DNA from: Flavobacteriales bacterium
GTDB taxonomy: Bacteria; Bacteroidota; Bacteroidia; Flavobacteriales_G; JALEGO01
Length of the DNA stretch: 47,351 nt
Assembly: GCA_022763165.1 (NCBI GenBank)
Contig: JALEGO010000161.1
Span: 1 to 47,351 of the forward strand
Direction of reading: 5' to 3'
The notes under the pieces are model-generated. The model made no database searches. It saw only the letters and a list, made by a program, of their open reading frames with translations, and was not told the origin of the DNA. Of the stretch, positions 12,193-46,180 are shown piece by piece; within the stretch, counting starts at the first letter, position 1; each line of letters opens with the position of its first letter. Made by a program: the position numbers and the translations under genes.

Positions 12193-12207
12193 AACTGGGA
12201 TTTTGAG

Positions 12208-19801: not shown

Positions 19802-19930
19802 GTTTGAACTTTTTTTCAAGTCAATACTATGACGTCAATTTAGCCCTTGTAAGAGTTAGAATCAATACTTTGTGGGAGACAAATGGGAGATATTGTAAAA
19901 GGGCGGCCTGTGACCTTTCATTTCTAATGC

Positions 19931-26347: not shown

Positions 26348-26373
26348 AATATTTCTTAATTACATACCTCTTA

Positions 26374-26388
26374 ACTTAAATAGTGCCA
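26374..26388 (-). promoter_or_regulatory. sigma54-like -24 element (perfect TGGCAC) upstream of the adhesin gene; poor -12
   Basis: The minus strand reads TGGCACTATTTAAGT. The GG lies 90 nt from the first base of the palindrome at 26477, close to the 88-89 nt seen at four other units. The -12 position lacks GC, so this is tentative. Confidence 0.3.
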
Positions 26389-26443
26389 TTATTACAAAGC
26401 GCTGCAAGACAGTTTTTTAGGTGTTTCTTGAGCGAACGTCACC

Positions 26444-26477
26444 CTCTATTAATGAGATTATTTTCTCAAATTGAGAA
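26444..26477 (-). promoter_or_regulatory. composite operator/UAS copy 1: palindrome TTCTCAAATTGAGAA plus 19-bp extension
   Basis: Perfect 15-bp palindrome at 26463-26477. The extension reads AATAATCTCATTAATAGAG on the minus strand (26462 down to 26444), so it points toward the adhesin gene. It matches copy 4 (AAGAATCTTATTCATAGAG) at 16 of 19 positions. Confidence 0.6.
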
Positions 26478-26486
26478 CATTTTAGA

Positions 26487-26495
26487 ATTGAGAAC
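26487..26495 (+). promoter_or_regulatory. extra half-site ATTGAGAAC (direct repeat of 26470-26478) just upstream of the activator gene
   Basis: ATTGAGAAC occurs twice, 17 nt apart, at 26470-26478 and 26487-26495. The second copy overlaps a TAGAATTG box (one mismatch to TAnnTTTG) about 17 nt before the ATG at 26508. Confidence 0.35.
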
Positions 26496-26507
26496 GTAAA
26501 GAAGCTC

Positions 26508-27860
26508 ATGAGTATGAATAAGATATTTGTTGTAGAAGATGATAGGTTTTATGGATCCCTTTTGAAACATCATCTGGAATTGAACCCTGATAATGAGGTC
26601 GTGTTATTTGAACATGCTGGAGATTGTTTGAAAAGACTACAGGAAAAACCTATGGCTATTACACTGGACTACAGTTTACCAGGGATAAGTGGATCAGAAG
26701 CTTTGAAGGCCATAAAGAGGATCGATCCTGATATTCCAGTGATAATGATTTCTGGGCAGGAGGATGTGAAAACGGCAATTAATCTATTGAAAGATGGCGC
26801 TTATGATTATTTGCTTAAGGATGATGATACAAAGGATCGACTATGGAATGCTATGATCAATATTGGAAAACGCAAAGAATTAGAGACTAGAGTTGAGCAT
26901 CTTGAACAAGAAGTAGAGCAGAAATTTCAATTTGACAAAAGTATTATCGGCAACAGTCCAGTATTACAAGACGTTTTCCGCTTATTGAATAAAGCGGTCA
27001 AAGCACCTATTACGGTTTCGATTACTGGAGAGACTGGAACAGGTAAAGAAGTAGCAGCCAAAGCAATTCACTTTAACTCGAATAGAAAAAAGAAACCTTT
27101 CGTGCCAGTAAATATGGCTGCTATACCTTCGGAGCTTATTGAAAGTGAGTTATTTGGCTATGAGAAAGGGGCTTTCACAGGAGCAAATGCTAGAAAAATT
27201 GGAAAATTTGAGGAGGCAAATGGAGGAACAATTTTTTTGGATGAAATTGCAGAAATGCCATTACCGATGCAATCTAAGCTCTTACGAGTTTTGCAAGAAG
27301 AAGAGGTAACCAGACTCGGTGGAAATGGAACTGTAAAAATTGATGTTAGGATCATATGCGCCACCCACAGAAATTTGGCGGAGGAGGTGGAGAAAGGTAA
27401 ATTCAGAGAGGACCTTTATTATAGATTACTGGGGCTACCGATTGAATTGCCACCCCTGAGGGATAGAGACAATGACATCTTAATCCTAGCCAAGTATTTC
27501 CTTGATGCTTTTTCTAAGAAAAATAAGATGGGAGCCTTGAAACTAGATAAAATGGCCCAAGACAAATTAATGAGCTACCCGTTTCCCGGGAATATCCGAG
27601 AGTTAAAAGCATTGATTGAGTTGGCTGCCGTGATGACAGATGATAATATCATTCGAGAAGAAGACATCACATTCAGATCCAAGGATGGGGTGGGAGACAT
27701 GATGCTTAAAGAAAGATCAATGAAGGATTACTCGCGCATGATTGTGGAGCATTTTCTCAAGAAATATCATAATGATATTAAAAAAGTAGCAGCTGTTTTA
27801 GACATCGGGGTTTCCTCAATCTACAGAATGATTCAGCAGGGAGAGATTGAGTCTAAATAA
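26508..27860 (+). CDS. sigma54-dependent NtrC-family response regulator (REC + AAA+ sigma54-interaction + Fis-type HTH)
   Basis: Receiver IFVVEDD...ITLDYSLPG. Walker A GETGTGKE. Sigma54-contact loop ESELFGYEKGAFTGA (GAFTGA at nt 27168-27185). Walker B GGTIFLDEI. C-terminal HTH DIKKVAAVLDIGVSSIYRMIQQG. Confidence 0.9.
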   Translation: MSMNKIFVVEDDRFYGSLLKHHLELNPDNEVVLFEHAGDCLKRLQEKPMAITLDYSLPGISGSEALKAIKRIDPDIPVIMISGQEDVKTAINLLKDGAYDYLLKDDDTKDRLWNAMINIGKRKELETRVEHLEQEVEQKFQFDKSIIGNSPVLQDVFRLLNKAVKAPITVSITGETGTGKEVAAKAIHFNSNRKKKPFVPVNMAAIPSELIESELFGYEKGAFTGANARKIGKFEEANGGTIFLDEIAEMPLPMQSKLLRVLQEEEVTRLGGNGTVKIDVRIICATHRNLAEEVEKGKFREDLYYRLLGLPIELPPLRDRDNDILILAKYFLDAFSKKNKMGALKLDKMAQDKLMSYPFPGNIRELKALIELAAVMTDDNIIREEDITFRSKDGVGDMMLKERSMKDYSRMIVEHFLKKYHNDIKKVAAVLDIGVSSIYRMIQQGEIESK

Positions 27861-28032
27861 TGCATTGACTTGAACAATAGTTGCAGCATTTAGTTATTAA
27901 ATCAGAATTCTAAAAATTGGACAATCTGTCTCAAAACGAGAAAAACACAACGAACAACAAATTTTATATCTCTTATAATCAGATTTTTATGAATTGGGCT
28001 TGATTTGTGATACCTCCAGAATAAACAGAATT

Positions 28033-28449
28033 ATGAAAGCAAAAACAGTAAATAAAGAAATCTTTTTAGTAGATGATGACCCAATGTGTCTTGAGGTGCT
28101 AAAATATCAACTTCATGAATTGAAAGGGTACAAGATTAGTGTATTTCAATCAGCAGAAGAATGTTTAAAACAAATTCATAGAAAGCCTGAATTTATCATT
28201 CTCGATTTTAATTTAGATGGAATGATTGAAACCAATATGGATGGACACCAGGCCTTAGGTTTGATCCATAACTATAATAAAAATATCGAAGTGATTTTTA
28301 TTTCTGGAGAACACAACTTCGAATTATTAGAAGTGTATGAGAAGTTTAGATCCGTTGAATTTTTGGTGAAGGAAGGGTTTGGGTCACCTATAATTAAAGA
28401 TTATATTGAATCAAGGATTCAATCAAAATACCCAAAATATATTGCTTAA
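28033..28449 (+). CDS. stand-alone response-regulator receiver (CheY-like)
   Basis: EIFLVDDDP...FIILDFNLDG...VIFISG. The ORF-track start at 27994 is TTG; the ATG at 28033 gives MKAKTVNKEIFLVDDD. Its stop overlaps the H-NOX start (TAATG at 28447-28451). Confidence 0.8.
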   Translation: MKAKTVNKEIFLVDDDPMCLEVLKYQLHELKGYKISVFQSAEECLKQIHRKPEFIILDFNLDGMIETNMDGHQALGLIHNYNKNIEVIFISGEHNFELLEVYEKFRSVEFLVKEGFGSPIIKDYIESRIQSKYPKYIA

Positions 28450-28991
28450 TGTACGGAATTGTAAATAAGGGCGTTCAATCTTTGGTTACGGATAATTGGG
28501 GAGATGAAATGTGGTCCAATATACTTGAGGACAGCAAAATAGAAGTTGACCTTTTTCTAAGTAATGAAATATATGATGATGAGATTACATACAAGTTGGC
28601 GATAAGTGCATCCAAACTCTTGGATGTTTCTGTAGGAGATGTTTTGTATGAATTTGGAAAGCATTGGGTACTTAAAACATCAATAAAGCACTACGGTAAG
28701 TTAATGGAGTCAGGAGGAGCAAACCTTAAGGATTTCCTCATTAATTTACCCAACTTTCATAGCAGGGTCATGTTAATTTTCCCAAAGATTACTCCTCCAG
28801 AATTTAAAGTAACACAGATAGAAGAGAATTCACTTCACTTACATTACTTCTCAAAACGAGAAGGCTTGAAAGAATTTGTAAGAGGTATCGTGAAAGGGTT
28901 GGGTACGATGTTCGAAACACCTGTAGAGATTGAATTAGTGGAAGACAGAGATGCAGGAGATGATCATGAAGTATTCAAAATCACTTGGTAA
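28449..28991 (+). CDS. hnoX: H-NOX (heme nitric oxide/oxygen-binding, HNOB) sensor protein, sGC-beta/Nostoc type
   Basis: N-terminus MYGIVNKGVQSLV (compare sGC beta1 MYGFVNHALELLV and Nostoc MYGLVNKAIQDMI). IYDDEITYKL..SASKLL. Proximal His in NLPNFHSRV (His104, nt 28758-28760). Heme-propionate motif YxSxR in LHYFSKREGL (nt 28845-28859). Length 180 aa. Confidence 0.9.
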   Translation: MYGIVNKGVQSLVTDNWGDEMWSNILEDSKIEVDLFLSNEIYDDEITYKLAISASKLLDVSVGDVLYEFGKHWVLKTSIKHYGKLMESGGANLKDFLINLPNFHSRVMLIFPKITPPEFKVTQIEENSLHLHYFSKREGLKEFVRGIVKGLGTMFETPVEIELVEDRDAGDDHEVFKITW

Positions 28992-29003
28992 AATTAAAGC
29001 TTG

Positions 29004-32000
29004 ATGGCTCAGCTGAATGATCAAAACTTGGAACGTCTCTTTCCTTTTTACTTTGTTATCGATCAAAATTTAACGATTACTCGATTTGGGAGGGGACTGG
29101 AAAAACTTGCAGGAGACACCAGAGGGAAGAGTTTTGAAGAAGTATTTCAAGTTGATCGGCCTAAAAGCTTGGCATTGAAGTTTGAGGCTTTTCATGAATA
29201 TCTCAATCAGATTTTCCTCATTGAGCTTAAGAATATTCAAGGTCAAACTGTCCTTTTAAAAGGGCAATTCGTAGAAACTGATCAAAAGGAACTTTTATTT
29301 GCAGGTTCTCCCTGGCTCACTAGTGTCGAGGAAATGAGCGAAAAAGGGTTATTGATCACAGACTTTGCATTGCATGATTCCACGGCAGATCTATTGCAAA
29401 TTTTGAAAACACAGGAAATTACCAATCAAGACTTACAGGAATTAGCACATGTTCTTAAAGCCAAAACGAAAGAATTAAAAGAAGCGCAGAAAATACTGTC
29501 AGAAAATCAAAGAAAATATGTTCAGCTGGTGGAAGAAGCGAGTGATATGATATTCACTGTTGATACTGATGGGAATTGTACATATGTGAATGATATTGCC
29601 TCCAAGATCGTAGGGTATCCTATGGAAGAACTAATTGGAATGCCATTTCATCAATTGGTAAGGGAAGATTATTTACCCAAAGTGGCCAAGTTCTACACCA
29701 AGCATTTTTCGGAAAAGCTCGATACATCATATTTTGAATTTCCGATCGTGACTAAATTTCAATCTGAACTGTGGGTTGGTCAAAATGTGAAAGCACTCTT
29801 TGAAAATGGAAAAATCACGGGTTTTCATTGTATTGCTCGAGATATTTCAAAGCTAAAAATACAGGAAGAACGAATTAAAAGGTTAGCTAAATTTCCTGAT
29901 GAAAACCCAAATCCAGTTCTAAGGGCAACTTACTCGGGCGATATATTGTATCATAATCCTTCAAGTAAGTACCTTCTAAAACTTTTGGATATTAATGACT
30001 CCAATAAACTCCCTAAACCCATTTTAGACGCGATTAATCAAATATCTGAGGAACATATAGAAATACAACTAGATTTATCCAATGCTACTTTTTCTTTCTC
30101 TTTAGCAAAGATTGAGGAATTTGAATATGTGAATATATACGCTAAAGATATCACTGACTTAAAAAGAGCTTCCCAAAAAATTGATGAACAAAAGGATTTC
30201 TATGAAAGTATTTTAAATAATATTCCTTCAGATATTGTGGCTTTTGATAAGGACCATCGATATTCATTTGTTAACCCAGTAGCAGTAAAAAATGAGGAAA
30301 TCAGGAAATGGCTCATTGGTAAAAACGATTTTGAATACTGTGAATATCGCAACAAGCCAATATCTCTTGCGGAAGCTAGAAAAGCCAAATTTGAAGAAGT
30401 AAAAAAACGCAAGGAAACCATAGAATGGGAAGAAAACTTTAATGGTCAATTTCAATTGAGGAAAATGAGTCCAGTCTATGATGATAATGGTCAGTTGAAA
30501 ATGGTCATGGGTTATGGAGTGGATGTCACCAACATAAAAGAAGCCGAACAGGAAATTAAGGCCCAAGAAGAAAAATTCAGAACGGTCTTTGACCAATCGA
30601 ATGATGGAATTATCCTACATGATTTCAGAGGAGTCATATTAGATGTCAACGACAGATTGTGTGAAATGCTAGATTATTCAAAGAAGGAGATTCTTGCGCT
30701 AAACATCCTGGATTTACATCCATCCTCTGAACTCAAAAAATCAGAAGAATCATTTCTTCGCATCGCTCAGAAAGGTTATGATAATTTCGAAATCTTATTC
30801 AAAAAAGCAAATAGATCAGCCATAGAAGCTGAGGTATCGGCAAGTATCATTGAGATTAAAGGAAAGAAATATATTCAAGGAACCATTCGTGACATTACGC
30901 TACGGAAGTCTACGGAAAGACAGATGATTGAAGCGAAAGATTTGGCTGAAAATGCAGTCAAAGCCAGAGAAAACTTTTTGGCCAACATGAGCCATGAGAT
31001 ACGCACACCAATGAATGCCATTTTAGGTATGAGCAAATTATTGCAAAGTGATAAAAACACTGAAAAAGAGGCACGTTATCTCAAAAGCATTAGAGGGTCA
31101 GCCCAGAATCTACTAGTCATCATCAACGACATTCTTGATTTTTCTAAAATAGATTCTGGTAAATTGGAATTTGAAAATGTAGGTTTCAAAATCAAAGACC
31201 TCGTTAGTCAGGTGGTGTCTACAAATGAATACCGCGTGACAGAGAAAGATATCGTTTTAAAAATGGAGTTTGATGCCGCTATTGATGATCAATTGGTGTG
31301 CTTGGGGGATCCAACTCGACTAACGCAAATTCTTACAAACTTAATCGGAAATGCAGTAAAATTCACCGAGAAAGGAGAAGTGTTGATTTTAGTGGATGTA
31401 CTTGAAAATACGGGTACCAATATACAGTTGCGTTTCACCGTTCATGACACCGGTATTGGTATTCCAGAAAGTAAAATTGACAAGATTTTTGAAGGGTTCA
31501 GCCAAGCAGATTCTAGCACAACAAGAAGGTATGGTGGAACGGGCTTGGGACTCTCTATCACTCGCAAATTGATCTTGCTCCAAGGTGGTGGAATTCGCGT
31601 ACACAGTGTAGAAGGTCAGGGTTCTGATTTCATTGTGAGGTTAGGATACCAAATAGGTTCAGGAAACGATTTGCCATCAGATCATCATAAGGAAATAGTT
31701 GCGGATTTGTCTGGCATGAAAGTCTTGTTGGTAGAAGACAATAAAATAAATCAATTCTTTGCAACAAGCTTAATGGAACCCTGGGGATTAAAAATCTCCA
31801 TTGCAAACAATGGTAAAGAGGCTGTTGAACTTGTTGGGAAAGAGTCTTTTGACCTCATTCTAATGGATATTCAAATGCCAGTAATGGATGGAATGGAAGC
31901 AACAAAAAAGATTCGAGATGAGTTGAAGATCAAAACACCGATTATCGCATTGACAGCCAATGCGATCAAAGGTGATGAAGAAAAGTATTTAGCCATCGGA

Positions 32001-32486
32001 ATGGATGATTATTTGTCTAAACCTTTTGAAGCAGAAGATCTAAATCAGAAAATCACCAAGTATATGAGCAAGTTGTCAGAAACACATGTTGAGAATGATG
32101 CTCTATTTGTTGAAATAGATTCTGAATTACAACCGCTGTTCGATTTAACCAAGTTGAAGAAACAAGCTACTGGAAACATGGTTTTTGTGAATAAGATGGT
32201 GAAGCTGTTTTTAGAAGAAACCCCTCCCTCCCTAAAAACTCTAGAATTATCTTTGAAAGAAGGTAATTGGGAAAGGGTCAAGGCTATCGTTCATAAAATG
32301 AAACCTTCCTTTAAGATTTTGGGAATCAAACATTGGGAGGATCAAATGCCTGTTCTTGAAAAATGGGCAGATCAAATGTCTGAAGAGAATAAAGAGGGTG
32401 AACTCATAGAATCCATTCAAGACTTGTTAAAGCAAATGCCTTACGTTTTACAGCAGATGAAGGATTACTTAGAGTCTCAAAACTGA
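29004..32486 (+). CDS. hybrid sensor histidine kinase: HNOBA + multiple PAS + HisKA + HATPase + REC + Hpt
   Basis: The ATG at 29004 follows the TTG at 29001. The N-terminal ~160 aa (about 29030-29500) resemble the sGC H-NOX-associated (HNOBA) domain: LFPFYFVIDQNLTITRFGRGLEKL..., LLKGQF, LLFAGSPW, GLLITDFALHDSTADLL (sGC beta1: FPFHIIFDRDLVVTQCG, LKGQM, ILFLCSPS, GLYLSDIPLHDATRDLV). About four PAS-like modules follow. H-box FLANMSHEIRTPMNAILG (His at 30993-30995). N/G boxes NLIGNAVKFT and DTGIGI..GGTGLGL. Receiver KVLLVEDN..DLILMDIQMPVMDG (Asp at 31866-31868). Hpt AIVHKMKPSFKILG (His at 32292-32294). Confidence 0.9.
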   Translation: MAQLNDQNLERLFPFYFVIDQNLTITRFGRGLEKLAGDTRGKSFEEVFQVDRPKSLALKFEAFHEYLNQIFLIELKNIQGQTVLLKGQFVETDQKELLFAGSPWLTSVEEMSEKGLLITDFALHDSTADLLQILKTQEITNQDLQELAHVLKAKTKELKEAQKILSENQRKYVQLVEEASDMIFTVDTDGNCTYVNDIASKIVGYPMEELIGMPFHQLVREDYLPKVAKFYTKHFSEKLDTSYFEFPIVTKFQSELWVGQNVKALFENGKITGFHCIARDISKLKIQEERIKRLAKFPDENPNPVLRATYSGDILYHNPSSKYLLKLLDINDSNKLPKPILDAINQISEEHIEIQLDLSNATFSFSLAKIEEFEYVNIYAKDITDLKRASQKIDEQKDFYESILNNIPSDIVAFDKDHRYSFVNPVAVKNEEIRKWLIGKNDFEYCEYRNKPISLAEARKAKFEEVKKRKETIEWEENFNGQFQLRKMSPVYDDNGQLKMVMGYGVDVTNIKEAEQEIKAQEEKFRTVFDQSNDGIILHDFRGVILDVNDRLCEMLDYSKKEILALNILDLHPSSELKKSEESFLRIAQKGYDNFEILFKKANRSAIEAEVSASIIEIKGKKYIQGTIRDITLRKSTERQMIEAKDLAENAVKARENFLANMSHEIRTPMNAILGMSKLLQSDKNTEKEARYLKSIRGSAQNLLVIINDILDFSKIDSGKLEFENVGFKIKDLVSQVVSTNEYRVTEKDIVLKMEFDAAIDDQLVCLGDPTRLTQILTNLIGNAVKFTEKGEVLILVDVLENTGTNIQLRFTVHDTGIGIPESKIDKIFEGFSQADSSTTRRYGGTGLGLSITRKLILLQGGGIRVHSVEGQGSDFIVRLGYQIGSGNDLPSDHHKEIVADLSGMKVLLVEDNKINQFFATSLMEPWGLKISIANNGKEAVELVGKESFDLILMDIQMPVMDGMEATKKIRDELKIKTPIIALTANAIKGDEEKYLAIGMDDYLSKPFEAEDLNQKITKYMSKLSETHVENDALFVEIDSELQPLFDLTKLKKQATGNMVFVNKMVKLFLEETPPSLKTLELSLKEGNWERVKAIVHKMKPSFKILGIKHWEDQMPVLEKWADQMSEENKEGELIESIQDLLKQMPYVLQQMKDYLESQN

Positions 32487-32489
32487 TTG

Positions 32490-32505
32490 GCCGTCTCTGC
32501 ACGGC
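32490..32505 (+). terminator. weak hairpin after the hybrid kinase gene
   Basis: GCCGT-ctctgc-ACGGC: 5-bp GC-rich stem with a 6-nt loop, 4 nt after the stop. The downstream T-tract is only weak. Confidence 0.25.
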
Positions 32506-32543
32506 ATTCTGTAAGAATCGAATTTTGCATTGGCAATATTATC

Positions 32544-32577
32544 CTCTCAAATTGAGAATCTAGTCTATTTCATAGAA
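32544..32577 (+). promoter_or_regulatory. composite operator/UAS copy 3: CTCTCAAATTGAGAA plus extension
   Basis: 13 of 15 central bases form a perfect palindrome. The extension TCTAGTCTATTTCATAGAA shares the invariant positions A19, C22, T23, T30, G32 and A33 with the other copies. Confidence 0.6.
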
Positions 32578-32630
32578 TTCCGAGATGATTTTTAATTGTT
32601 AAACATCACATTATCAAACAATTAATATTT

Positions 32631-32646
32631 GGGCACCAATTTGGCA
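32631..32646 (+). promoter_or_regulatory. candidate sigma54 promoter (-24/-12) for the REC-wza-wzc operon
   Basis: GGGCACCAATTTGGCA compared with the consensus TGGCACG-N4-TTGCW. GGCAC is present, the -12 GC has the correct 10-nt spacing, and there is one mismatch in TTGC. The GG lies 88 nt from the palindrome start. The ATG at 32668 is about 22 nt downstream. Confidence 0.5.
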
Positions 32647-32667
32647 TTTCACCAATAAACAAAACTA

Positions 32668-33159
32668 ATGTTTATGGAAAAGTCAAAAGTATTTATAGTT
32701 GAAGATGACCCATTTTACAGAGAAATGGTAGTCAATGAATTATCAAAAGACAAGAGCCTTGTTTTGGAGTCCTTTGACAATGGAACGGATTTTAAGAATA
32801 ATTTATACAAAAATCCGGATGTCGTTTTGATGGATTATGGTTTAGAGGATTCAGATGGATTAGCATTATTGAGAGAAATAAAAGGATTAAATCCAAACAT
32901 TGAGGTGATCTTTCTGTCAGCTCAGGAGAAGTTACAGGTAGCGATAAATTCACTGAAGTACGGAGCATTCGACTACATCACTAAAAATGATGCTGCCTTA
33001 TCTCGTTTATTGCCAACCATTAATCGAATTTTCACCATTAAGAATGCTCTATTGACTCAAAAACAATTTAAGCGATTCAAAATTGGAGCCATCGTCTTTT
33101 TTGCTGTACTAATTAGTCTTCTCGCTGCCATCGAAGTAGTAAAACCTGAATTATTGTAA
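32668..33159 (+). CDS. membrane tail-anchored response-regulator receiver (REC + single C-terminal TM helix)
   Basis: VFIVEDDP...VVLMDYGLEDSDG (Asp56, nt 32833-32835)...VIFLSA...K..AFDYITK. Then IGAIVFFAVLISLLAAIEVV (aa 139-158, nt 33082-33141) and only 5 more residues. There is no output domain. It is the first gene of the export operon. Confidence 0.8.
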   Translation: MFMEKSKVFIVEDDPFYREMVVNELSKDKSLVLESFDNGTDFKNNLYKNPDVVLMDYGLEDSDGLALLREIKGLNPNIEVIFLSAQEKLQVAINSLKYGAFDYITKNDAALSRLLPTINRIFTIKNALLTQKQFKRFKIGAIVFFAVLISLLAAIEVVKPELL

Positions 33160-33160
33160 A

Positions 33161-33883
33161 ATGAGATATTTATTCTACATAGTTATTCTATTCTGTGCTT
33201 CAGGTTGTGCCTATCAAAACATGATGCAAACACAAAGTGCTAGACCTATCTCAGATTTGAATTATGATTCTGCTTATTATCAAATCCGAAAAGATGATAA
33301 GATCAGTTTGAGCGTATGGAACCATGATGATCTGAGCATCGGATCTCTTTATGGTATTTATAATTCAAATGAGGTATACGGCAAGTGGGTTCTTGTGGAT
33401 GAAGCTGGAGAAGTAACTTTACCCAGAATCGGCTCCGTTAAAATTGAAGGTTTAAGCATCAAAGAAGCAGAAGACACGATCGTAAAAAGGCTCGCCAACC
33501 TAATTGTTGATCCAATCGTGAAACTTAAGGTCTTAAACCGGTCTGTTACAGTTTTGGGTGAAGTCAGGAACCCCGGAAGCTTTCCTTTGGAAAAAGAGAA
33601 ACATTATTTGCTGGAGATCATTGGCAAGAGCGGAGGCTTGGAATTTTATGCGGATAAAAGTTCTGTCAAACTGGTGCGACTATCAAAGGATGGCCCTGTA
33701 GAATATCAAATTGATTTAACTAAAGGAGAAGAGCTAGCCAAAACAAATGTGTTGTTGCAAAATGGAGATGTGATTTACGTGCCTACTCGAAAAGGAAAAA
33801 ATCTCGATAAAAAAGCCCCAACCTTAATTCCCTTCACTAGTGTCGTTACTGCTATTGTATTAGTCTTAACAGTTGTAAAATAA
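33161..33883 (+). CDS. wza: polysaccharide export outer-membrane protein (Wza-like; Poly_export + SLBB)
   Basis: Lipoprotein-type signal LFCASGC. Poly_export-like YQIRKDDKISLSVW and GEVTLPRIGSVKIEGLSIKEAE. SLBB-like VTVLGEVRNPGSFPL and NGDVIYVP. Confidence 0.8.
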   Translation: MRYLFYIVILFCASGCAYQNMMQTQSARPISDLNYDSAYYQIRKDDKISLSVWNHDDLSIGSLYGIYNSNEVYGKWVLVDEAGEVTLPRIGSVKIEGLSIKEAEDTIVKRLANLIVDPIVKLKVLNRSVTVLGEVRNPGSFPLEKEKHYLLEIIGKSGGLEFYADKSSVKLVRLSKDGPVEYQIDLTKGEELAKTNVLLQNGDVIYVPTRKGKNLDKKAPTLIPFTSVVTAIVLVLTVVK

Positions 33884-38560: not shown

Positions 38561-38581
38561 ATATTCAATTTTATCATTCTC

Positions 38582-39865: not shown

Positions 39866-39900
39866 ACACGAGATATTTAATCAAATTAGGTCTGCGTTTT

Positions 39901-39934
39901 TTCTCAAAATGAGAAAAGAATCTTATTCATAGAG
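39901..39934 (+). promoter_or_regulatory. composite operator/UAS copy 4: TTCTCAAAATGAGAA plus extension
   Basis: One mismatch to the palindrome. The extension AAGAATCTTATTCATAGAG is itself an imperfect dyad (TCTTAT..ATAGA). A further CTCAACTGAGAA dyad lies at 39940-39951. Confidence 0.6.
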
Positions 39935-39987
39935 AAACCCTCAACTGAGAATTTCCTAACCACTTGTTTTACAAGACGTTATAATCT

Positions 39988-40003
39988 TGGCGTCCTTTTC
40001 GCT
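39988..40003 (+). promoter_or_regulatory. candidate sigma54 promoter for the three-domain kinase gene
   Basis: TGGCGTCCTTTTCGCT: TGGC..N..CGCT with GG and GC at canonical spacing. The GG lies exactly 88 nt from the palindrome start, the same as copy 3. The ATG at 40025 is 22 nt downstream. Confidence 0.45.
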
Positions 40004-40024
40004 TTATTAGAGACAAATGAATAA

Positions 40025-42673
40025 ATGATGAAAGCGAAAGTTCAAAGCACAGATGTAGAAATATTACTAAAAGCCTATTTTCCAAAAGATATTCAACTTT
40101 TCATTTTTGATCCATCACAAATAATGGATTGGAATGACGGAGCTTTTAAAGATTATAATAATTGCTCCTTCGAAGCACCTAAAGTATTGGTGAACTTTGG
40201 TAGAAGAACTGCTTATTGTAACGGATATAATTTGAATGAGTTTGATTACATTTTGGACTTTGGAAAATGTAGAAAAAATCAACTGAGAAAAACAAGCTTC
40301 AACAGTTTGAATAATCCGGACGGCTCTCTAAGGTGGCTGTTTCCAAAGTCTTTGAAGAGACCTACATTCTTATCGCTTTATAATTCAGACAGTTTAAAAG
40401 CAAAAATATTGTGTCTTTTGCTTCCAATTTTATATGTTCTTGGACTTAAATCACTCTTTTCGCATCGATCCATTCATATATATCACAGATTTCCGTTAAA
40501 GATTCATCAAGCATTCAAAGGAATTCATTTTGAAAACCATTCCTTATTTACAGGCACTCCAGGGCCCAATAGGAAATTAGTTTTTGAACTCAATAATCAT
40601 TTTAAGACAACTCATTTTATCAAAGTTCCATTAAATAGAGATTCATTGAACTTGATTCAAAGAGAAAAGAGAATGTTGCGCAAGTTGAAATCACTTGATT
40701 TAAAACATGTTGAAATACCAAAACTATTACAATTAGAAGAGGAGAATATTCAGGTTATAGAAAATAATCAAAATACCTCAAAAGTTAGCGGAAATTGGAC
40801 CAAGGCACATACGGATTTTTTAGCTGAGGTTTATGAAAAGTCTACGGTATTGGACAAGGTTGAATACAGCTTTTTCTATGAAATTATTCAAACGAATCTG
40901 CTGAACCTAGAACGAAACGGAACGAAGTTGGATAAACTGAAAAGCCTGATACCTCAATTGCGAGAACTATTTGATCAATTACCTAAATATAAGCAAGTGC
41001 CTTTGGGGATTGCCCATAAGGATTTTACGCCCTGGAATATTTTGAATACTCCCAATGGCCTTTATGTATATGATTGGGAATTTGGTTCTTCTCAAACACC
41101 CTTGTTGTTTGATTTCTTCCATTTCCATTTCCAATCTGAAATTATGCAGGGGAATAAAGATTTCCATTCCATCAAATCCAAGATGGATCAGGAACTAAAT
41201 CAAGCTGAAATACAGAATTTGATTGAAAAACATGACATAGATGTAGCGCTACATTTAGAATTATATATGTTATACCAAATAGGCTATTACGGTGTGTTGT
41301 ACAGCCGACAAATAGAATGTCATGAACAGGTATTCTGGCAACTCGAAGTTTGGTCACAAGCTCTTGAAGAATTAATTAAAGGAAAAGTACCCAATCAAAA
41401 ACAACAGTTCATTTATGAATTGTGCAATGCTGTTCACGATACCAGATATGCCTGGTTGAAGCATGCCGGGATATCAATTCACAACTTTCCTGAAAATTCA
41501 GATATTGATTTGGCAGTATTGCTTGAAGATGGTGAAGGGATCATAAGATTATGTGAGAACAGTCCTTACGTACAGCGAGTATTGGTGAGTAGAAAATCTT
41601 ATATGAAAAAGGTGGAACTCTTTTTTAAAGAGGGCAGCTATCTCAGCCTAGACTTGATTCATGAGTTCAAAAGAAAATCACAAAGGATGATGGATATCAA
41701 ACCTTTATTGAGATCCGTTACTAGAAATGAAGAGGGTATACTGATTCCTGATGTGAGGTTTGACATGGAGTATATGATGTGCTTTTATAATTTGAATAAT
41801 GCCCATATTCCAAGTAAATACTGTCATTGGTTTGGAAGACAGTCATTTTCAGATAAAGAACGAACGAACAATTATTTAATGTCTAAATACAGACTGAATT
41901 TGAAAGAGTTAAATCAGATTTTGTCTGGAGAAAGTAAAGGTTCTTTGAACAGTCTTCGGATGAATTTAGATTGGAAAGAACGATTCAGCGGATATATCAA
42001 CTATGCAGCAGATACGATCAAAAGTATCTGGAAATCGGAGGGTATGTTAATTACGTTTTCTGGAGTAGATGGAGCAGGAAAAAGCACTGTTTTGGAAAAT
42101 TTGAAGGAGAAATTGCAAAGCAAATACAGAAAAGAAGTGGTAGTATTGCGACACCGACCTTCAATTTTACCTATTCTAAGTGCTTGGAAATACGGAAAAG
42201 ATAAGGCGGAAAAAATGGCAGTTTCAACATTGCCGAGAACGGGGAATAACAATAGCTTATTATCATCAGTCCTTAGATATACTTATTATCTAGCGGATTA
42301 TATCATAGGACAGTGGGCAGTAAGGTTCAAATATTTATCCAGAGGTAAAATTGTCTTGTACGATCGCTACTATTTCGATTTTATTGTGGATGGAAAAAGA
42401 AGCAATTTGGATTTACCCAATTGGTTTACAAAAATGGCTTATCGATTTATTGATAAACCAAAACTCAACTTCTTTTTATACGCCAAACCTCAGGTTATTT
42501 TAGAACGAAAGCAGGAATTGGACGAGCAGTCAATAATTCATCTGACAAGCAAGTATCAAAACTTGTTTCTAGACTTATCAAAAAAGGAAGATGCAACTTA
42601 TATCAGTATTGAAAATGTAGACTTGAACCGAACATTGAACAAGCTGGAAAGGCAGTACGCTGAAGCGGCATAA
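40025..42673 (+). CDS. three-domain fusion: APH/choline-kinase-like phosphotransferase + nucleotidyltransferase-like domain + thymidylate-kinase-like P-loop kinase
   Basis: The APH catalytic loop HKDFTPWN (nt 41015-41038) followed by VYDWEF matches the HxDxxxxN...D(W/F)E signature. The middle region has SDIDLAVLLEDGEG (about 41498-41518) and LSLDLIHEF, like uncharacterised NTase-fold domains (DIDLLV...lDlH). The C-terminus has ITFSGVDGAGKST (P-loop, nt 42062-42088), LYDRYYFD and a lid-like region, as in dTMP-kinase-family proteins. Confidence 0.6.
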   Translation: MMKAKVQSTDVEILLKAYFPKDIQLFIFDPSQIMDWNDGAFKDYNNCSFEAPKVLVNFGRRTAYCNGYNLNEFDYILDFGKCRKNQLRKTSFNSLNNPDGSLRWLFPKSLKRPTFLSLYNSDSLKAKILCLLLPILYVLGLKSLFSHRSIHIYHRFPLKIHQAFKGIHFENHSLFTGTPGPNRKLVFELNNHFKTTHFIKVPLNRDSLNLIQREKRMLRKLKSLDLKHVEIPKLLQLEEENIQVIENNQNTSKVSGNWTKAHTDFLAEVYEKSTVLDKVEYSFFYEIIQTNLLNLERNGTKLDKLKSLIPQLRELFDQLPKYKQVPLGIAHKDFTPWNILNTPNGLYVYDWEFGSSQTPLLFDFFHFHFQSEIMQGNKDFHSIKSKMDQELNQAEIQNLIEKHDIDVALHLELYMLYQIGYYGVLYSRQIECHEQVFWQLEVWSQALEELIKGKVPNQKQQFIYELCNAVHDTRYAWLKHAGISIHNFPENSDIDLAVLLEDGEGIIRLCENSPYVQRVLVSRKSYMKKVELFFKEGSYLSLDLIHEFKRKSQRMMDIKPLLRSVTRNEEGILIPDVRFDMEYMMCFYNLNNAHIPSKYCHWFGRQSFSDKERTNNYLMSKYRLNLKELNQILSGESKGSLNSLRMNLDWKERFSGYINYAADTIKSIWKSEGMLITFSGVDGAGKSTVLENLKEKLQSKYRKEVVVLRHRPSILPILSAWKYGKDKAEKMAVSTLPRTGNNNSLLSSVLRYTYYLADYIIGQWAVRFKYLSRGKIVLYDRYYFDFIVDGKRSNLDLPNWFTKMAYRFIDKPKLNFFLYAKPQVILERKQELDEQSIIHLTSKYQNLFLDLSKKEDATYISIENVDLNRTLNKLERQYAEAA

Positions 42674-42692
42674 TACATAATACAAGAGAATC

Positions 42693-43409
42693 ATGAAAAA
42701 AATAATAGAAAAGATCATTAGGTTTCGTAATCCCAATTTTGAATTCGATTCAAATGTTTCGATGGGGATGGTTTTATCTCTTGTATTTGATAAAGGAATA
42801 GGCATCTTCCGAGGGATATTAAAAAAACCATTCTTGAATGAATTAGGAAAGTTGACAGTATTCGGAAAGTCTGTCAAAATAATATGCGGACCCAAAATCA
42901 GTATTGGCGACTATGTGAAAATTGGTTCCTATTGCAAACTTAGTGGGTTGGGAATAGAAGGATTAAGCATTGGAGATGCTTCAGGGATAGGAGATCACAG
43001 CCAAATTGTAGTATCCACTTCTCTTGATAACCTAGGGGAAGGCATTCGAATAGGTAACAATGTGGGAATAGGTGAATTTGCCTATTTAGGAGGTGCTGGA
43101 GGACTAGAAATTGGAGATGAATGCATTATTGGACAATACTTTAGTTGCCACCCTGAGAATCATAATTTTCATGATGTTTCCAAATCTATCCGTTGGCAAG
43201 GAACCACCCGTAAAGGGATAAAAATAGGTCGGAACTGCTGGATCGGATCCAAGGTGACGATCTTAGATGATGTGACGATTGGAGACAATTGTGTGATTGC
43301 GGCAGGTGCCGTGGTAACCAAGAGCATGCCAGCCAATTCTGTGATCGGAGGAGTCCCAGCTAAAGTGCTTAAATCTATTGTGGATCCTTTAGCACTTAAG
43401 GCAGCATGA
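42693..43409 (+). CDS. hexapeptide-repeat (left-handed beta-helix) O-acetyltransferase
   Basis: Repeated [LIV]G-x4 hexapeptides: IGDYVKIGSYCKL, IGNNVGIGEFAYL, IGRNCWIGSKVTILDDVTIGDNCVIAAGAVV, then VIGGVPAKVLK. Confidence 0.8.
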   Translation: MKKIIEKIIRFRNPNFEFDSNVSMGMVLSLVFDKGIGIFRGILKKPFLNELGKLTVFGKSVKIICGPKISIGDYVKIGSYCKLSGLGIEGLSIGDASGIGDHSQIVVSTSLDNLGEGIRIGNNVGIGEFAYLGGAGGLEIGDECIIGQYFSCHPENHNFHDVSKSIRWQGTTRKGIKIGRNCWIGSKVTILDDVTIGDNCVIAAGAVVTKSMPANSVIGGVPAKVLKSIVDPLALKAA

Positions 43410-43433
43410 GACTCCGTTTTGACTTTTTTAAAT

Positions 43434-43467
43434 TTCTCAATTTGAGAAAGCAATCTTAAAAATGGAA
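43434..43467 (+). promoter_or_regulatory. composite operator/UAS copy 5: TTCTCAATTTGAGAA plus extension
   Basis: Perfect palindrome with centre T. Extension AGCAATCTTAAAAATGGAA. Confidence 0.55.
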
Positions 43468-43521
43468 TAATCTTTAAAGCTGAAAGACCACAAGGATCAA
43501 TAAATCAATTACTTGCGGAAA

Positions 43522-43537
43522 AGGCACGCTTATTTCA
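43522..43537 (+). promoter_or_regulatory. sigma54-like element (good -24, atypical -12 TTTC)
   Basis: AGGCACGCTTATTTCA. GGCACG is perfect, but the -12 reads TTTC instead of TTGC. The GG lies 89 nt from the palindrome start. It is only about 12 nt before the ATG at 43549, so the leader would be very short. Confidence 0.3.
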
Positions 43538-43548
43538 ATAGAGCAATT

Positions 43549-44814
43549 ATGAAGACAATACTAGCAACAACATATGCTGTGAATCCTTACAAGGGTTCAG
43601 AAGACGGCATGGGATGGAACTTTATCTTGCAAATAGCCAAAGAGCACAAGGTAATTGCTATAACCAGGGAGAATAATAAAGAAGCCATTGAAAAATATCA
43701 GCGAGAAAACGCTGACTGTAGATATCAAAATATACAATTCGAATATTTTGATTTGCCCTACTGGATGCGATTTTGGAAAAGGGGTCAGAGAGGGGCTATG
43801 CTGTATTTTTATCTATGGCAGTTTTTCTTACCTATAATGGTAATTAAAAGAAAACTACATTTCGATGTCGCACATAATGTGAACTTTCATAATGATTGGA
43901 CAGCCTCCTTTTTATGGCTGTTAGGTAAACCTTTTGTTTGGGGACCAACAGGTCATCACCCTAAAATACCAAAAACATACTTGAAAGAAGCAACCAGAAA
44001 AGAACGACTCAAGGAACAAATAACTTGGATTTTAAAGAAAATGTTTTGGTCACTCGATCCATTTTTGAAAATCACAAAGTGGAAAGCAAAGCACATTTTC
44101 TGCATGAATTCTGAAGTCGAACAAGTACTTGGATTGAAGGAAAACTGGAGTATTCTTCCTTCTGTAGCATGTGAGCAAGGGTCAGTTCTAAGTTCAAAAA
44201 ACAAAGGGAAATTCACAGTGCTTTCAGTAGGCCGGTTTGTGCCACTTAAAGGGTTTGATGTGACCATAAAGTCATTTGCGCAATTGATCAAAGACAATGC
44301 TATTGACGATGCGGAATTGGTTCTTGTAGGGAAGGGTCCTATGAAGAAGCGTTTGCAGGCGATTATTGATCAGGAGGGCATAAAAGATAAAGTTCGATTA
44401 ATAGATTGGATTGAAAGAGATCAATTGAAGGCGCTTTACACAGTGTCGGATGTGTTTCTGTTTCCTTCCCACGAAGGCGCAGGAATGGTGGTAGCGGAGG
44501 CAATGAGTTATGGATTGCCAGTGCTTTGTTTTGACAACTCGGGACCTGGTGAGTTTATTTCAGTACAAAGTGGTATAAAAGTTCCTTATTCGAACTATGA
44601 TGAGTCCATCTATAAGTTTGCAGCTGCGCTGGAGCTGCTTTATCGGGATATCAATTACAGAGATACCCTTGCTTACAACGCGCAGAGAGAATATGCAGAA
44701 AGACTCACCTGGGATCATAAAGGTGAAATCTTGGCCAAAGTATATGATCGTGTCTTACAGTCACAAAAACCAGTCACTACAATGTCTCCTAAATTAAGTC
44801 AGTCATTGCGTTAG
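43549..44814 (+). CDS. glycosyltransferase family 4 (GT-B fold)
   Basis: The ORF-track start at 43513 is TTG. The ATG at 43549 gives MKTILATTYAVNPYKGSEDGMGWN. The E-x7-E region is SHEGAGMVVAEAMSYGLPVLCFDNSGPGEFI. Confidence 0.8.
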   Translation: MKTILATTYAVNPYKGSEDGMGWNFILQIAKEHKVIAITRENNKEAIEKYQRENADCRYQNIQFEYFDLPYWMRFWKRGQRGAMLYFYLWQFFLPIMVIKRKLHFDVAHNVNFHNDWTASFLWLLGKPFVWGPTGHHPKIPKTYLKEATRKERLKEQITWILKKMFWSLDPFLKITKWKAKHIFCMNSEVEQVLGLKENWSILPSVACEQGSVLSSKNKGKFTVLSVGRFVPLKGFDVTIKSFAQLIKDNAIDDAELVLVGKGPMKKRLQAIIDQEGIKDKVRLIDWIERDQLKALYTVSDVFLFPSHEGAGMVVAEAMSYGLPVLCFDNSGPGEFISVQSGIKVPYSNYDESIYKFAAALELLYRDINYRDTLAYNAQREYAERLTWDHKGEILAKVYDRVLQSQKPVTTMSPKLSQSLR

Positions 44815-44831
44815 GGATAGCAGCAGCAATC

Positions 44832-44846
44832 ATTTCAATTTGAGTA
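44832..44846 (+). promoter_or_regulatory. degenerate copy of the palindrome (ATTTCAATTTGAGTA)
   Basis: Three mismatches to TTCTCAATTTGAGAA. A second dyad, TCAAATTGA, lies at 44850-44858. A GGAAC-N5-AAAC element begins 87 nt downstream (44919). Weak. Confidence 0.25.
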
Positions 44847-44941
44847 AGATCAAATTGAAGAATTGTCACGAATAGCCCGACCCCAATCTGAGTTGATCTG
44901 AAAACTTGGTAGATTGGGGGAACGCCCAAAACAAGAATAAA

Positions 44942-46042
44942 ATGAAACGATTAAATGTATTATTCGTGCATCTTTTCAACGATTTTAGTGGAAGTCCTTT
45001 AGTCTTGAAAAATGTTGTCACAGGATTGAAAGGTGAAGTAAGTGCCTCTTTGATTACCTCAAACAGCGAAGGTTTTTTATCAAATCTTGAAGTGGATTAC
45101 TATCCTTTTAAGTACACTTTTAAGCGAAACAAATGGCTACGCTTACTTGAATTTCTGATAGCGCAGTGGAAGATTTTCTTTGTGATGATTAACATGAAAA
45201 CGAAAATGGATGTTTGTTATGTGAACACAATCCTGCCATTTGGCGCGGCTTTAGCAGCCAAATTAAAGGGGATAAAAGTGATTTATCATGTGCATGAGAC
45301 ATCCGTGAAGCCTGAAGTATTGAAGAAACTGTTATTGTTTATGGTACAATTCACAGCAGACGAAATAATCTATGTATCTCATTTCCTTGCCAAAAGGGAA
45401 GCTATTTCGGAGGTTAAATCTAGAGTGGTGTACAATGCCTTATCAAAGGAATTTCTAGCTAGAATCGAAAAAGGCAAAGCCCGTAACCGTAAACAAATTT
45501 TGATGTTGAGTTCATTAAAACACTATAAAGGAATTGATCAGTTTGTGGCTCTAGCCAAAAGACTACCACAATTCAATTTTGATTTGGTTGTGAATGCAAG
45601 TTATACTGAAATGGGTGATTATTTTAGTGATCAAAATTTTCCTGAGAACCTGTATCTCTATGATGCTCAGGAAGAGGTGCATCCTTTTTATGCCAATGCG
45701 GATTTAGTGTTAAATCTGTCCATTCCCGATTTATGGCAGGAAACCTTTGGGATGACTGCCTTGGAAGCCATGGCTCATGGCATTCCTGTGATTGTTCCTC
45801 CGGTTGGAGGTATTGCAGAGATCATTGATAATGGAATTCAAGGTCTTCAAATTGATGCAAGAAACTTAGGCGCTTTGATGCATGGTGTTTGTTCAATTCT
45901 GGAAGACCCAAAGGAGTATGATTTGATGTCGAAGGCAGCATATTTTAAATCCAAACTTTTTTCAATAGAAGAACAAATCCGACAGGTTCGACAAATATTA
46001 GACATACATCCGCGTCAACAACGGGAAATACTAGCTGCTTAA
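44942..46042 (+). CDS. glycosyltransferase family 4/1 (GT-B fold)
   Basis: The ORF-track start at 44906 is TTG. The ATG at 44942 gives MKRLNVLFVHLFNDFSGSP. C-terminal motif QETFGMTALEAMAHGIPVIVPPVGGIAEII. Confidence 0.8.
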   Translation: MKRLNVLFVHLFNDFSGSPLVLKNVVTGLKGEVSASLITSNSEGFLSNLEVDYYPFKYTFKRNKWLRLLEFLIAQWKIFFVMINMKTKMDVCYVNTILPFGAALAAKLKGIKVIYHVHETSVKPEVLKKLLLFMVQFTADEIIYVSHFLAKREAISEVKSRVVYNALSKEFLARIEKGKARNRKQILMLSSLKHYKGIDQFVALAKRLPQFNFDLVVNASYTEMGDYFSDQNFPENLYLYDAQEEVHPFYANADLVLNLSIPDLWQETFGMTALEAMAHGIPVIVPPVGGIAEIIDNGIQGLQIDARNLGALMHGVCSILEDPKEYDLMSKAAYFKSKLFSIEEQIRQVRQILDIHPRQQREILAA

Positions 46043-46044
46043 AA

Positions 46045-46078
46045 TTCTCAATTTGAGAAAACACGCTCGTATTTAGAA
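46045..46078 (+). promoter_or_regulatory. composite operator/UAS copy 7: TTCTCAATTTGAGAA plus extension
   Basis: Perfect palindrome starting 3 nt after the stop of the preceding GT gene. Extension AACACGCTCGTATTTAGAA. Confidence 0.55.
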
Positions 46079-46132
46079 AATCAAATAGGCAGCCCCTTAT
46101 ATAACAACATGTAAGTCAAGTAATTAAATGTT

Positions 46133-46148
46133 TGGAATGATCTTTTCA
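46133..46148 (+). promoter_or_regulatory. sigma54-like element (TGG..., atypical -12 TTTC)
   Basis: TGGAATGATCTTTTCA. The GG lies 89 nt from the palindrome start, the same as copy 5. The -12 is TTTC, as in copy 5. The ATG at 46181 is 33 nt downstream. Confidence 0.3.
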
Positions 46149-46180
46149 ACATCCAGTTTAAATTTAGAAAATGAACAAAG

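Follow-up and report, generated by a model that had tools for sequence, protein, structure and literature searches.

Results

A reiterated palindrome precedes candidate sigma-54 promoters in an exopolysaccharide and adhesin island

In the right-hand 21 kb of a 47,351-nucleotide stretch of Flavobacteriales DNA (contig JALEGO010000161.1; hereafter the window, meaning the stretch at its full length), a 15-bp palindrome, TTCTCAAWTTGAGAA, recurs in the intergenic DNA of an island of exopolysaccharide (EPS) and adhesin genes, at a fixed distance upstream of candidate sigma-54 promoters. From sequence comparison, we conclude that the element is probably the enhancer, or upstream activating sequence (UAS), of a dedicated sigma-54 regulon run by an adjacent activator with receiver (REC), AAA+, and helix-turn-helix (HTH) domains. 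A first-pass annotation of the window had proposed a dedicated regulon of this kind, and the computational comparisons capable of distinguishing such a code from chance or from a generic repeat all favoured it. Five syntenic loci and a further locus from Ekhidna support it, with amendments: the 19-bp extension that accompanies the palindrome appears to be a second site, the degenerate copy at 27928 falls in a class of shorter spacing, the copy at 44832 is unsupported, and a conserved box close to the promoters had been overlooked.

The palindrome matches TTCTCAAWTTGAGAA without a mismatch at 26463, 43434, and 46045 and with one mismatch at 32544 and 39901. When up to two mismatches were allowed, the window held seven matches against 0.66 expected, and none of 100 shuffles reached seven; the two extra, two-mismatch matches (28848 and 37002) fall within coding sequence. 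The five good copies all fall between genes of the right-hand 21 kb, with none left of 26 kb in the window, in agreement with what had first been reported. Copy 1 (TTCTCAATTTGAGAA, 26463..26477) reads on the minus strand in the divergent adhesin/activator intergenic region. The others are on the plus strand: copy 2 (CTCTCAAATTGAGAA, 32544..32558), copy 3 (TTCTCAAAATGAGAA, 39901..39915), copy 4 (TTCTCAATTTGAGAA, 43434..43448), and copy 5 (TTCTCAATTTGAGAA, 46045..46059), which begins 2 nt past the stop codon of the preceding glycosyltransferase (GT) gene. In an alignment of the five regions, the invariant columns of the 19-bp extension are exactly the positions named in the first-pass annotation (A19, C22, T23, T30, G32, and A33). 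The distances that it gave from the first palindrome base to a GG-N10 motif were likewise recovered, at 90 for copy 1 on the minus strand and 88, 88, 89, and 89 for copies 2 to 5, and the motif strings it quoted match the sequence at all five copies.

Two degenerate copies had also been listed, each with three mismatches to the palindrome, and they fared differently. The copy at 27928..27942 (GTCTCAAAACGAGAA, plus strand), upstream of the operon encoding REC1, an H-NOX sensor, and a hybrid kinase, is supported by synteny, with its GG at +69 rather than at +88 to +90. The copy at 44832 has no downstream box or GG-N10-G, and no promoter was seen there; it is probably not a separate transcription unit, so the GT gene that follows (GT4c) is likely co-transcribed with its predecessor (GT4b).

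With an approximate generic sigma-54 position weight matrix (PWM), used only for a background rate, four of the five GG boxes score 9.1-11.2 bits. Because only ~34 of the 94,702 window positions reach 9.1 bits, the chance of finding four such matches within a 3-nt window is roughly 1e-11, far beyond chance.

The arrangement is kept in related loci

The proteins encoded in the window have no close relatives on record; the best match to the activator is 65% identical. We sought related loci in two ways. Selecting homologues of the activator by a shared HTH motif, LDIGVSSIYRM, brought up the syntenic loci L085 (a Flammeovirgaceae metagenome-assembled genome) and L086. Homologues of wzy (1650 at E <= 1e-10, the best 120 at 50-62% identity) led to L094, L095 (Fulvivirga sediminis, Cytophagales), and L096 (strain SCSIO 12741, complete genome CP073749.1), and extended L085 and L086. 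This gave five syntenic loci (L085/L092, L086/L093, L094, L095, and L096), all from Cytophagales-like genomes. Whole-protein identity did not predict synteny, while the shared HTH motif did. An exact-pattern metagenome scan with the 32-nt composite returned no match, and a metagenome scan with an alignment of the C-terminal HTH returned five loci, none of them syntenic. A genome-collection scan with the full-length activator alignment returned, among the matches listed, mostly paralogues from other phyla and at least eight Bacteroidota loci.

Proteins of the syntenic loci are 45-62% identical to those of the window, and the intergenic DNA is unalignable outside the conserved blocks: the spacer DNA between blocks is not conserved, while the block positions are kept across genomes. 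Palindromes lie between the activator and H-NOX genes at L085 10683 (perfect) and L086 11352 (at most one mismatch), the same position as 27928 in the window. They are found between the hybrid kinase gene and REC2-wza at L085 15249, L086 14456, L094 3897, and L096 3992, between wzy and a kinase-like gene at L094 12090 and L096 11306/11322, and between a GT gene and the DUF1972 GT gene at L092 13151, L094 18053, and L096 17203. A GG stands at a fixed distance in ~20 promoters from seven genomes, and orthologous promoters keep both the palindrome and a GGCA(C/T) box. Control of the adhesin is clear only in the window itself.

The palindrome also accompanies the kinase-activator pair into a non-EPS context (L001 and L006). 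In the non-syntenic Ekhidna locus L001, a kinase-activator pair occurs with no EPS genes, and the palindrome, box, and GGCA are present at both promoters. A variant of the palindrome was found in F. sediminis, where three sites (L095 4141, 11277, and 16914) read TTCCATnnnAYGGAA instead of TTCTCAnnnTGAGAA. This looks like a natural specificity switch, and the symmetric change of both half-sites would fit the site of a dimeric protein evolving with its binder. In F. sediminis, the 3' end of the EPS cluster contains the activator gene (19310-20656), accompanied by a PAS kinase gene and not by one for H-NOX.

Geometry of the proposed enhancer

The UAS of a bacterial enhancer-binding protein typically consists of dyad-symmetric sites roughly 80-150 bp upstream of the promoter. 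Here, the core of the palindrome is TCT-N7-AGA inside TTCTCAAWTTGAGAA, and the 19-bp extension appears to be a second, weaker activator-type site and not a separate kind of motif. It has the same outer triplets at the same spacing in copies 1, 2, and 3 and one triplet mismatch in copies 4 and 5, its centre lies 19 bp promoter-proximal of the palindrome centre, and relatives often show a more evident palindrome at this second site (L086 TCTCAAAATGA, L094 TTCTCTATCCAAGAGA, L096 TCTCTAACATAGA). In the window, this putative second site occupies 26444..26462 on the minus strand (copy 1) and, on the plus strand, 32559..32577 (gTCTatttcatAGAa, copy 2), 39916..39934 (aTCTtattcatAGAg, copy 3), 43449..43467 (aTCTtaaaaatGGAa, copy 4), and 46060..46078 (cGCTcgtatttAGAa, copy 5).

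The centres of the two sites are 81-83 and 62-64 bp upstream of the GG. If the first G of the GG is at about -26, as in Flavobacterium psychrophilum promoters, the repeats would be centred near -108 and -89. The distance from the palindrome to the GG falls into two classes. It is 88-90 at 10 promoters from four genomes (window copies 1 to 5, L085_HNOX, L092_GTd, L094_REC2, L096_REC2, and L096_GTd) and 68-72 at six promoters (window 27928, L086_HNOX, L094_GTd, both L001 promoters, and L095_GTd). The gap between the classes equals the 19-bp distance between sites, from which it follows that the strong palindrome takes the proximal position in the short class.

A third, degenerate site (TTCTCAATTCTAAAA, 26480..26494, minus strand, 12/15) is present on the activator-gene side of copy 1, ~20 bp before the activator start codon, so that the sites at 26463-26494 together lie ~20-50 bp upstream of that codon. 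In L086, a palindrome (9955-9969) is found 31 bp upstream of the activator gene; in L085, no palindromic site was found upstream of the activator gene. The sites before the activator's own start codon probably serve to autoregulate the activator gene. Half-site-like repeats were also seen before distant Bacteroidota orthologues of the activator, in L002 (upstream of 2358) and L005 (upstream of 10001); examples are AATGAGA direct repeats and TTCTCAAAAT...AAATTGAGGAA, ~17 nt apart. These may be variant site architectures.

Candidate -24/-12 promoters

Sigma-54 promoters carry GG at -24 and G(C) at -12 in a GG-N10-GC arrangement with the consensus TGGCAC/TTGCW, start transcription ~11-13 nt past the -12 element, and depend absolutely on rpoN and an activator. 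Six transcription units of the window have a candidate promoter of this type. That of the T9SS (type IX secretion system) FG-GAP adhesin, TGGCACTATTTAAGTTA, is at 26372..26388 on the minus strand, before the ATG at 26347. The other five are on the plus strand: GGGCTTGATTTGTGATA at 27996..28012 for REC1, H-NOX, and the hybrid kinase (REC1 ATG 28033); GGGCACCAATTTGGCAT at 32631..32647 for REC2-wza-wzc-wzx-GT4-wzy (ATG 32668); TGGCGTCCTTTTCGCTT at 39988..40004 for an 882-aa kinase-like gene and a hexapeptide acyltransferase gene (ATG 40025); AGGCACGCTTATTTCAA at 43522..43538 for GT4b (ATG 43549), with T, not G, at the canonical -13; and TGGAATGATCTTTTCAA at 46133..46149 for the DUF1972 glycosyltransferase (ATG 46171). 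Start codons had been placed 12-33 nt after the motif; close downstream starts are indeed found, and the range becomes 11-26 nt after the 15-nt motif because the ATG at 43549 was taken instead of the TTG at 43513 chosen by the open reading frame (ORF) finder. The ORF-finder TTG starts of REC1 (27994) and GT4b (43513) would overlap the predicted promoters, while the in-frame ATGs at 28033 and 43549 suit the promoter positions and typical protein lengths.

Across 21 candidate promoters, the consensus is TGGCAC-N-TTTTTGCAT, which equals the canonical sigma-54 form TGGCAC...TTGCA and is partly circular, some of the GG anchors in this set having been chosen with the -12 element in view. The canonical -13 position is G in 17 of the 21, and the next base is C (seven), A (seven), or T (three). 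In the window, the GG-N10 endings are GC in copies 2 and 3, GT in copy 1, GA in the 27928 copy, and TC in copies 4 and 5. The first-pass annotation had entered the caveat that two units have TTTC and one AAGT where TTGC is expected. F. psychrophilum sigma-54 promoters, which have mapped transcription start sites and were in part validated by mutagenesis, read GG-N10-GT or GG-N10-GA (PMC9723704 Table S2); GG-N10-G(T/A) is therefore normal in Bacteroidota. These promoters include TTGGCACGATTTTAGTTG (remF), TTGGCATAATTTCTGAAA (groS), TTGGAATAACAATTGACG (clpB), and two with TTTGT (PMC9723704 Table S2). The comparison largely removes the caveat and leaves the T at -13 in copies 4 and 5 and in L085_REC2.

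A close resemblance was found at copy 1, where the adhesin promoter ATGGCACTATTTAAGTTA (ATGGCACTATTTAAGTTAAG) has almost exactly the form of the sigma-54 promoter of F. psychrophilum remF, TTGGCACGATTTTAGTTGTG. The latter, which is mutagenesis-validated, drives the remFG-sprCDBF operon of the SprB adhesin (PMC9723704). The -24 element of copy 5, TGGAATG, is common to the orthologous L094 promoter and F. psychrophilum clpB, and the orthologous F. sediminis promoters, TGGCACTTTGTTGGCA and TGGCACAAATTGGGCA, are near-canonical (TGGCAC-N5-(T/G)GGCA). The 47-kb window contains no rpoN gene. One sigma-54 is encoded by F. psychrophilum (PMC9723704), and the phylum can therefore carry this factor.

An IHF-consensus-like box at a fixed distance from the -24 element

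Most of the promoters also contain a 13-nt box, absent from the first-pass annotation, that matches the consensus WATCAANNNNTTR (WATCAAnnnnTTR) of E. coli integration host factor (IHF); we call it an IHF-consensus-like box and not an IHF site. It lies ~35 bp from the second site, and its first base is 20 nt before the GG, so that 7 nt separate it from the -24 element, an unusually rigid distance. In the window, the box is perfect at copy 2 (TATCAAACAATTA, 32612..32624) and copy 4 (AATCAATTACTTG, 43503..43515), has one mismatch at copy 5 (AGTCAAGTAATTA, 46114..46126) and at the 27928 copy (AATCAGATTTTTA, 27977..27989), and is poor at copy 1; these boxes, like that of copy 3, are on the plus strand where coordinates are given. 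At copy 3 (TTACAAGACGTTA, 39969..39981) it has two mismatches and takes the form of a TTACAA variant common to the orthologous kinase promoters of L095 and L096.

The distance between box and palindrome is also constrained. In the related loci, nine unique perfect WATCAANNNNTTR boxes lie no more than 220 bp from a palindrome; their offsets are confined to 50-51 and 68-70, and seven of the nine have a GG at box+20/21. In a control set of unrelated activator loci (1.37 Mb), only two boxes were found near the 41 palindrome-like matches, at random offsets. Because perfect boxes sit at only two offset ranges in the related loci and at random ones in the controls, the phasing is under selection and cannot be put down to recent duplication inside a single genome. 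At L085_REC2 and L094_kin, the box is 33 and 30 nt from the GG instead of 20.

The box was absent from the five F. psychrophilum SM4 promoters compared from the published set (PMC9723704), which suggests that it is regulon-specific; the idea that it is a general feature of Bacteroidota sigma-54 promoters found no support in those five. We also considered an extra activator half-site and disfavour it: the F. sediminis kinase promoter keeps its box (TTACAA...) even though the palindrome has changed, a pattern that points to a different binding factor. The scanned ORFs of the window include no HU/IHF gene. Bacteroidetes lack IHF-beta and have just an IHF-alpha-like clade confined to them, whose sequence specificity has been called untested (bioRxiv 10.1101/2024.06.24.600358). 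The Bacteroidota IHF-alpha-like protein is an obvious candidate for the binder of the box.

Gene context and the activator

The presumed activator is a bacterial enhancer-binding protein encoded on the plus strand at 26514..27860 (26508 is an alternative start). An NtrC-type activator with GAFTGA and a Fis-type HTH had been annotated here, and Pfam and alignment bear this out: the protein has a REC domain, an AAA+ sigma-54 interaction domain with an intact GAFTGA, and a C-terminal Fis-type HTH (PF00072/PF00158/PF25601), and translation and alignment show an AAA lid domain and the HTH motif LDIGVSSIYRM. Database gene models start at the second Met, which gives 448 aa. On the minus strand lies the gene for the 2138-aa adhesin with FG-GAP repeats and a T9SS tail (19931-26347). 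Downstream of the activator, on the plus strand, follow REC1 (ATG 28033), the H-NOX haem sensor (28449-28991, Pfam), and a HNOBA-PAS-HisKA-HATPase-REC-Hpt hybrid kinase (29001-32486, Pfam). The H-NOX and hybrid kinase (28449..32486) are presumed to be the signal input to the activator, and the pair also follows the activator gene in L085, L086, and L096.

The EPS genes begin with REC2 at 32668 (plus strand), followed by wza, wzc, wzx, GT4, and wzy. Next come the 882-aa kinase-like protein (40025-42673, plus strand), the hexapeptide acyltransferase (42693), GT4b (43549), GT4c (44906), and the DUF1972 glycosyltransferase (46171). The kinase-like protein, of ~820-885 aa, gives only weak thymidylate-kinase-like and APH matches. 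It is kept in the three syntenic loci that extend past wzy and carry the gene (L094 12238-14895, L095 11402-13867, and L096 11446-14091), whereas no such gene comes after wzy in L092 and L093. All the loci that have it place it directly behind wzy, with its own enhancer and promoter.

The left half of the window encodes a 2449-aa RHS/DUF6443 protein (4882-12231, minus strand), a LytTR response regulator with a His_kinase partner, and a TPR-His_kinase protein (regions 12299-15128, minus strand, and 16424-18373, plus strand). No palindrome was found at these RHS/DUF6443, LytTR/His_kinase, or TPR-His_kinase genes.

Discussion

Each unit of the proposed regulon has the same layout, in which a strong repeat is followed by a weaker repeat 19 bp on, the box, a gap of 7 nt, a TGGCAC-type -24 element, and a T-rich -12 element that lies 10 nt past the GG and ends in G(C/A/T). 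We infer transcription start sites, rpoN dependence, and binding by the activator from this layout, and several observations weigh against the proposed regulon. In L086, the region upstream of REC2-wza (14456-14600, the same as L093 3734-3878) has tandem palindromes, but the 144 nt that precede the ATG contain not one GG dinucleotide, which rules out a sigma-54 -24 box in this region. The near-invariant -13 G is replaced by T in copies 4 and 5 and in L085_REC2. With the generic sigma-54 PWM, the window promoters score within the range of many coding-sequence matches, and the 21-promoter consensus has the circularity already described. In addition, the adhesin/activator region of L085 has no palindrome and the adhesin side of L086 has no -24 box, so adhesin control appears not to be conserved.

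The L086 region, the missing -13 G, and the poor discrimination of the PWM would all be accommodated if the activator, or a close relative, bound the palindromes and acted on sigmaA promoters, with the GG boxes being incidental. Such conventional activator or repressor action on sigmaA promoters is known for FleQ and VpsR in proteobacteria, and one-mismatch matches to TAnnTTTG overlap the TTTGG of copies 2, 3, and 5. We nevertheless consider this explanation unlikely. The GAFTGA motif is intact. None of the six window units contains an exact match to the Bacteroidetes sigmaA -7 box (TAnnTTTG) or to SM5 (TAnnTTGY), and matches with a single mismatch are as frequent as in the background (~10 per kb per strand). 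Moreover, the fixed-distance GG of ~20 promoters in seven genomes, with its TGGCAC...TTGCA consensus, would be left as an accident.

A different set of difficulties concerns the identity of the binder. The palindrome of F. sediminis has a different sequence, and the HTH, which is otherwise similar, shows no obvious change to match. No palindrome lies near activator homologues that are 63% identical and occur in other contexts (L081-L084; best full-length matches P0004 and P0006), and some of the loci without palindromes encode nearly the same recognition helix. In L094, which has palindromes, the 4 kb of sequence preceding the REC-wza operon contain no activator gene. It could thus be supposed that the promoters are sigma-54 dependent and that another protein, for example a regulator encoded outside the window, binds the palindrome while the activator uses other sites. 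We regard this as improbable, and favor the adjacent activator as the most likely binder, because the right-hand 21 kb encode no other DNA-binding regulator, the GAFTGA of this protein is intact, the palindrome travels with the kinase-activator pair where EPS genes are lacking (at two promoters in Ekhidna L001, and in L006), and the predicted positions near -108 and -89 are normal for an enhancer.

There is very little to recommend a non-regulatory origin of the repeats, as relics of a duplicated intergenic cassette, REP-like elements, or terminator hairpins. Three copies do begin 2-36 bp past an upstream stop codon, and the palindrome can form a hairpin of 6-10 bp. However, these hairpins are weak (-3.6 to -8 kcal/mol), A-runs and not U-runs come after them, and four of the five copies have unremarkable z-scores of -0.6 to -1.3 (-2.4 for copy 3, at -8 kcal/mol). 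Terminator-like sites in the window number 11 against 11.9 expected, none of them at a palindrome, and Rfam gave no family match. The copies are confined to the island within the window, and the conservation of block positions, but not of spacers, at 45-62% protein identity is also hard to reconcile with relics.

Under the proposed enhancer-driven regulon, H-NOX would sense a diatomic gas and modulate the hybrid kinase, and phosphate would pass via Hpt to the REC domain of the activator. Dimers of the phosphorylated activator would then occupy the distal and proximal sites that are seen in the sequence, and form the active oligomer. In reaching the sigma-54 polymerase, the oligomer could be helped by an architectural protein bound at the box or by intrinsic curvature of the AT-rich DNA, as the geometry suggests. 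The activator would drive open-complex formation from the closed sigma-54 RNA polymerase at -24/-12, so that six units would be switched on together: the adhesin; REC1-H-NOX-kinase; REC2-wza-wzc-wzx-GT-wzy; kinase-like/acyltransferase; GT4b(-GT4c); and the DUF1972 glycosyltransferase. The sensor operon REC1-H-NOX-kinase would provide feedback, being itself inside the regulon, and the adhesin would be a member of the regulon in this genome.

A more far-reaching proposal, which we put forward tentatively and consider less likely than not, concerns the WATCAANNNNTTR box, which lies 7 nt before the GG in five or more Cytophagales-like genomes: it may be a natural target that the Bacteroidota-only IHF-alpha-like protein recognizes by sequence. 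With no IHF-beta partner, that protein could then act as a fixed-geometry architectural partner of sigma-54 RNA polymerase and, with the activator, form a nitric oxide (NO)/H-NOX-responsive switch for EPS and T9SS adhesin in Bacteroidota. The fixed box in any case supplies concrete candidate sites for the question, raised in a recent preprint, of whether Bacteroidetes IHF-alpha-like proteins bind DNA sequence-specifically (bioRxiv 10.1101/2024.06.24.600358).

The regulation of EPS and T9SS adhesins in environmental Bacteroidota is largely uncharted, and the locus offers a complete wiring diagram, with a sensor, hybrid kinase, putative sigma-54 activator, enhancer, architectural box, and promoter, and a widely conserved Wzx/Wzy EPS cluster as output. 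Fulvivirga sediminis and strain SCSIO 12741 are cultured carriers of the same system, which makes experiments feasible. To our knowledge, H-NOX signalling has had no functional study in Bacteroidota, and sigma-54 regulation of EPS has not been described in this phylum.

Enhancers of the NtrC type that act with the help of IHF include those of Escherichia coli glnAp2/glnHp2, Klebsiella nifH, and Pseudomonas Pu. The arrangement described here resembles them in its tandem dyad sites ~80-140 bp upstream of -24/-12, in the IHF-consensus site between, and in the overlap of the sites with the activator gene's own promoter. It differs in that the sites are 19 bp apart from centre to centre, a non-integral number of helical turns, and in that the IHF-like box abuts the -24 element at a near-invariant distance. 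It also occurs in Bacteroidota, which have only the IHF-alpha-like clade and no IHF-beta (bioRxiv 10.1101/2024.06.24.600358).

Within the same phylum, the SM4 regulon of F. psychrophilum has promoters of the form TGGCA[C/T]-N-T-rich-G[T/A] and includes an operon for a T9SS-secreted adhesin (PMC9723704). However, no enhancer or activator has been assigned to it, its EPS genes are tied to the SM5 motif and not to sigma-54 (PMC9723704), and the five promoters compared lack the WATCAANNNNTTR box. The H-NOX-HqsK-LuxU-LuxO pathway of Vibrio harveyi/parahaemolyticus likewise has an H-NOX-controlled hybrid kinase and a phosphorelay that ends on a sigma-54 activator (PMC6759604, PMC12369376). Its output is Qrr small RNAs and quorum sensing and not a polysaccharide locus, and it is not known to have a reiterated enhancer across a biosynthetic island.

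The closest known system is the syp locus of Vibrio fischeri, to which we claim analogy and not homology. Syp is an 18-gene polysaccharide locus of four operons under sigma-54 and the bacterial enhancer-binding protein SypG, with a reiterated syp enhancer, and HnoX-HahK is among its kinases as an NO input (PMC10162802, PMC12369376). Both systems have a polysaccharide locus in several units, each with a sigma-54 promoter and a reiterated enhancer (predicted from sequence in the window), and a locus-encoded REC-AAA+-HTH activator whose inputs are hybrid kinases with Hpt relays, among them one under H-NOX control. They differ in phylogeny, the present locus belonging to Bacteroidota and syp to Vibrionaceae. 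Here, moreover, the H-NOX/kinase operon lies inside the proposed regulon and beside the activator, the T9SS adhesin appears to be co-regulated, and an IHF-consensus-like box keeps a constant 7-nt distance to the -24 element. Conceptually, the system would be a phylum-shifted counterpart of syp/SypG, a real but fairly conventional switch and not a new kind of mechanism, to which the conserved IHF-consensus-like box is the addition over known systems.

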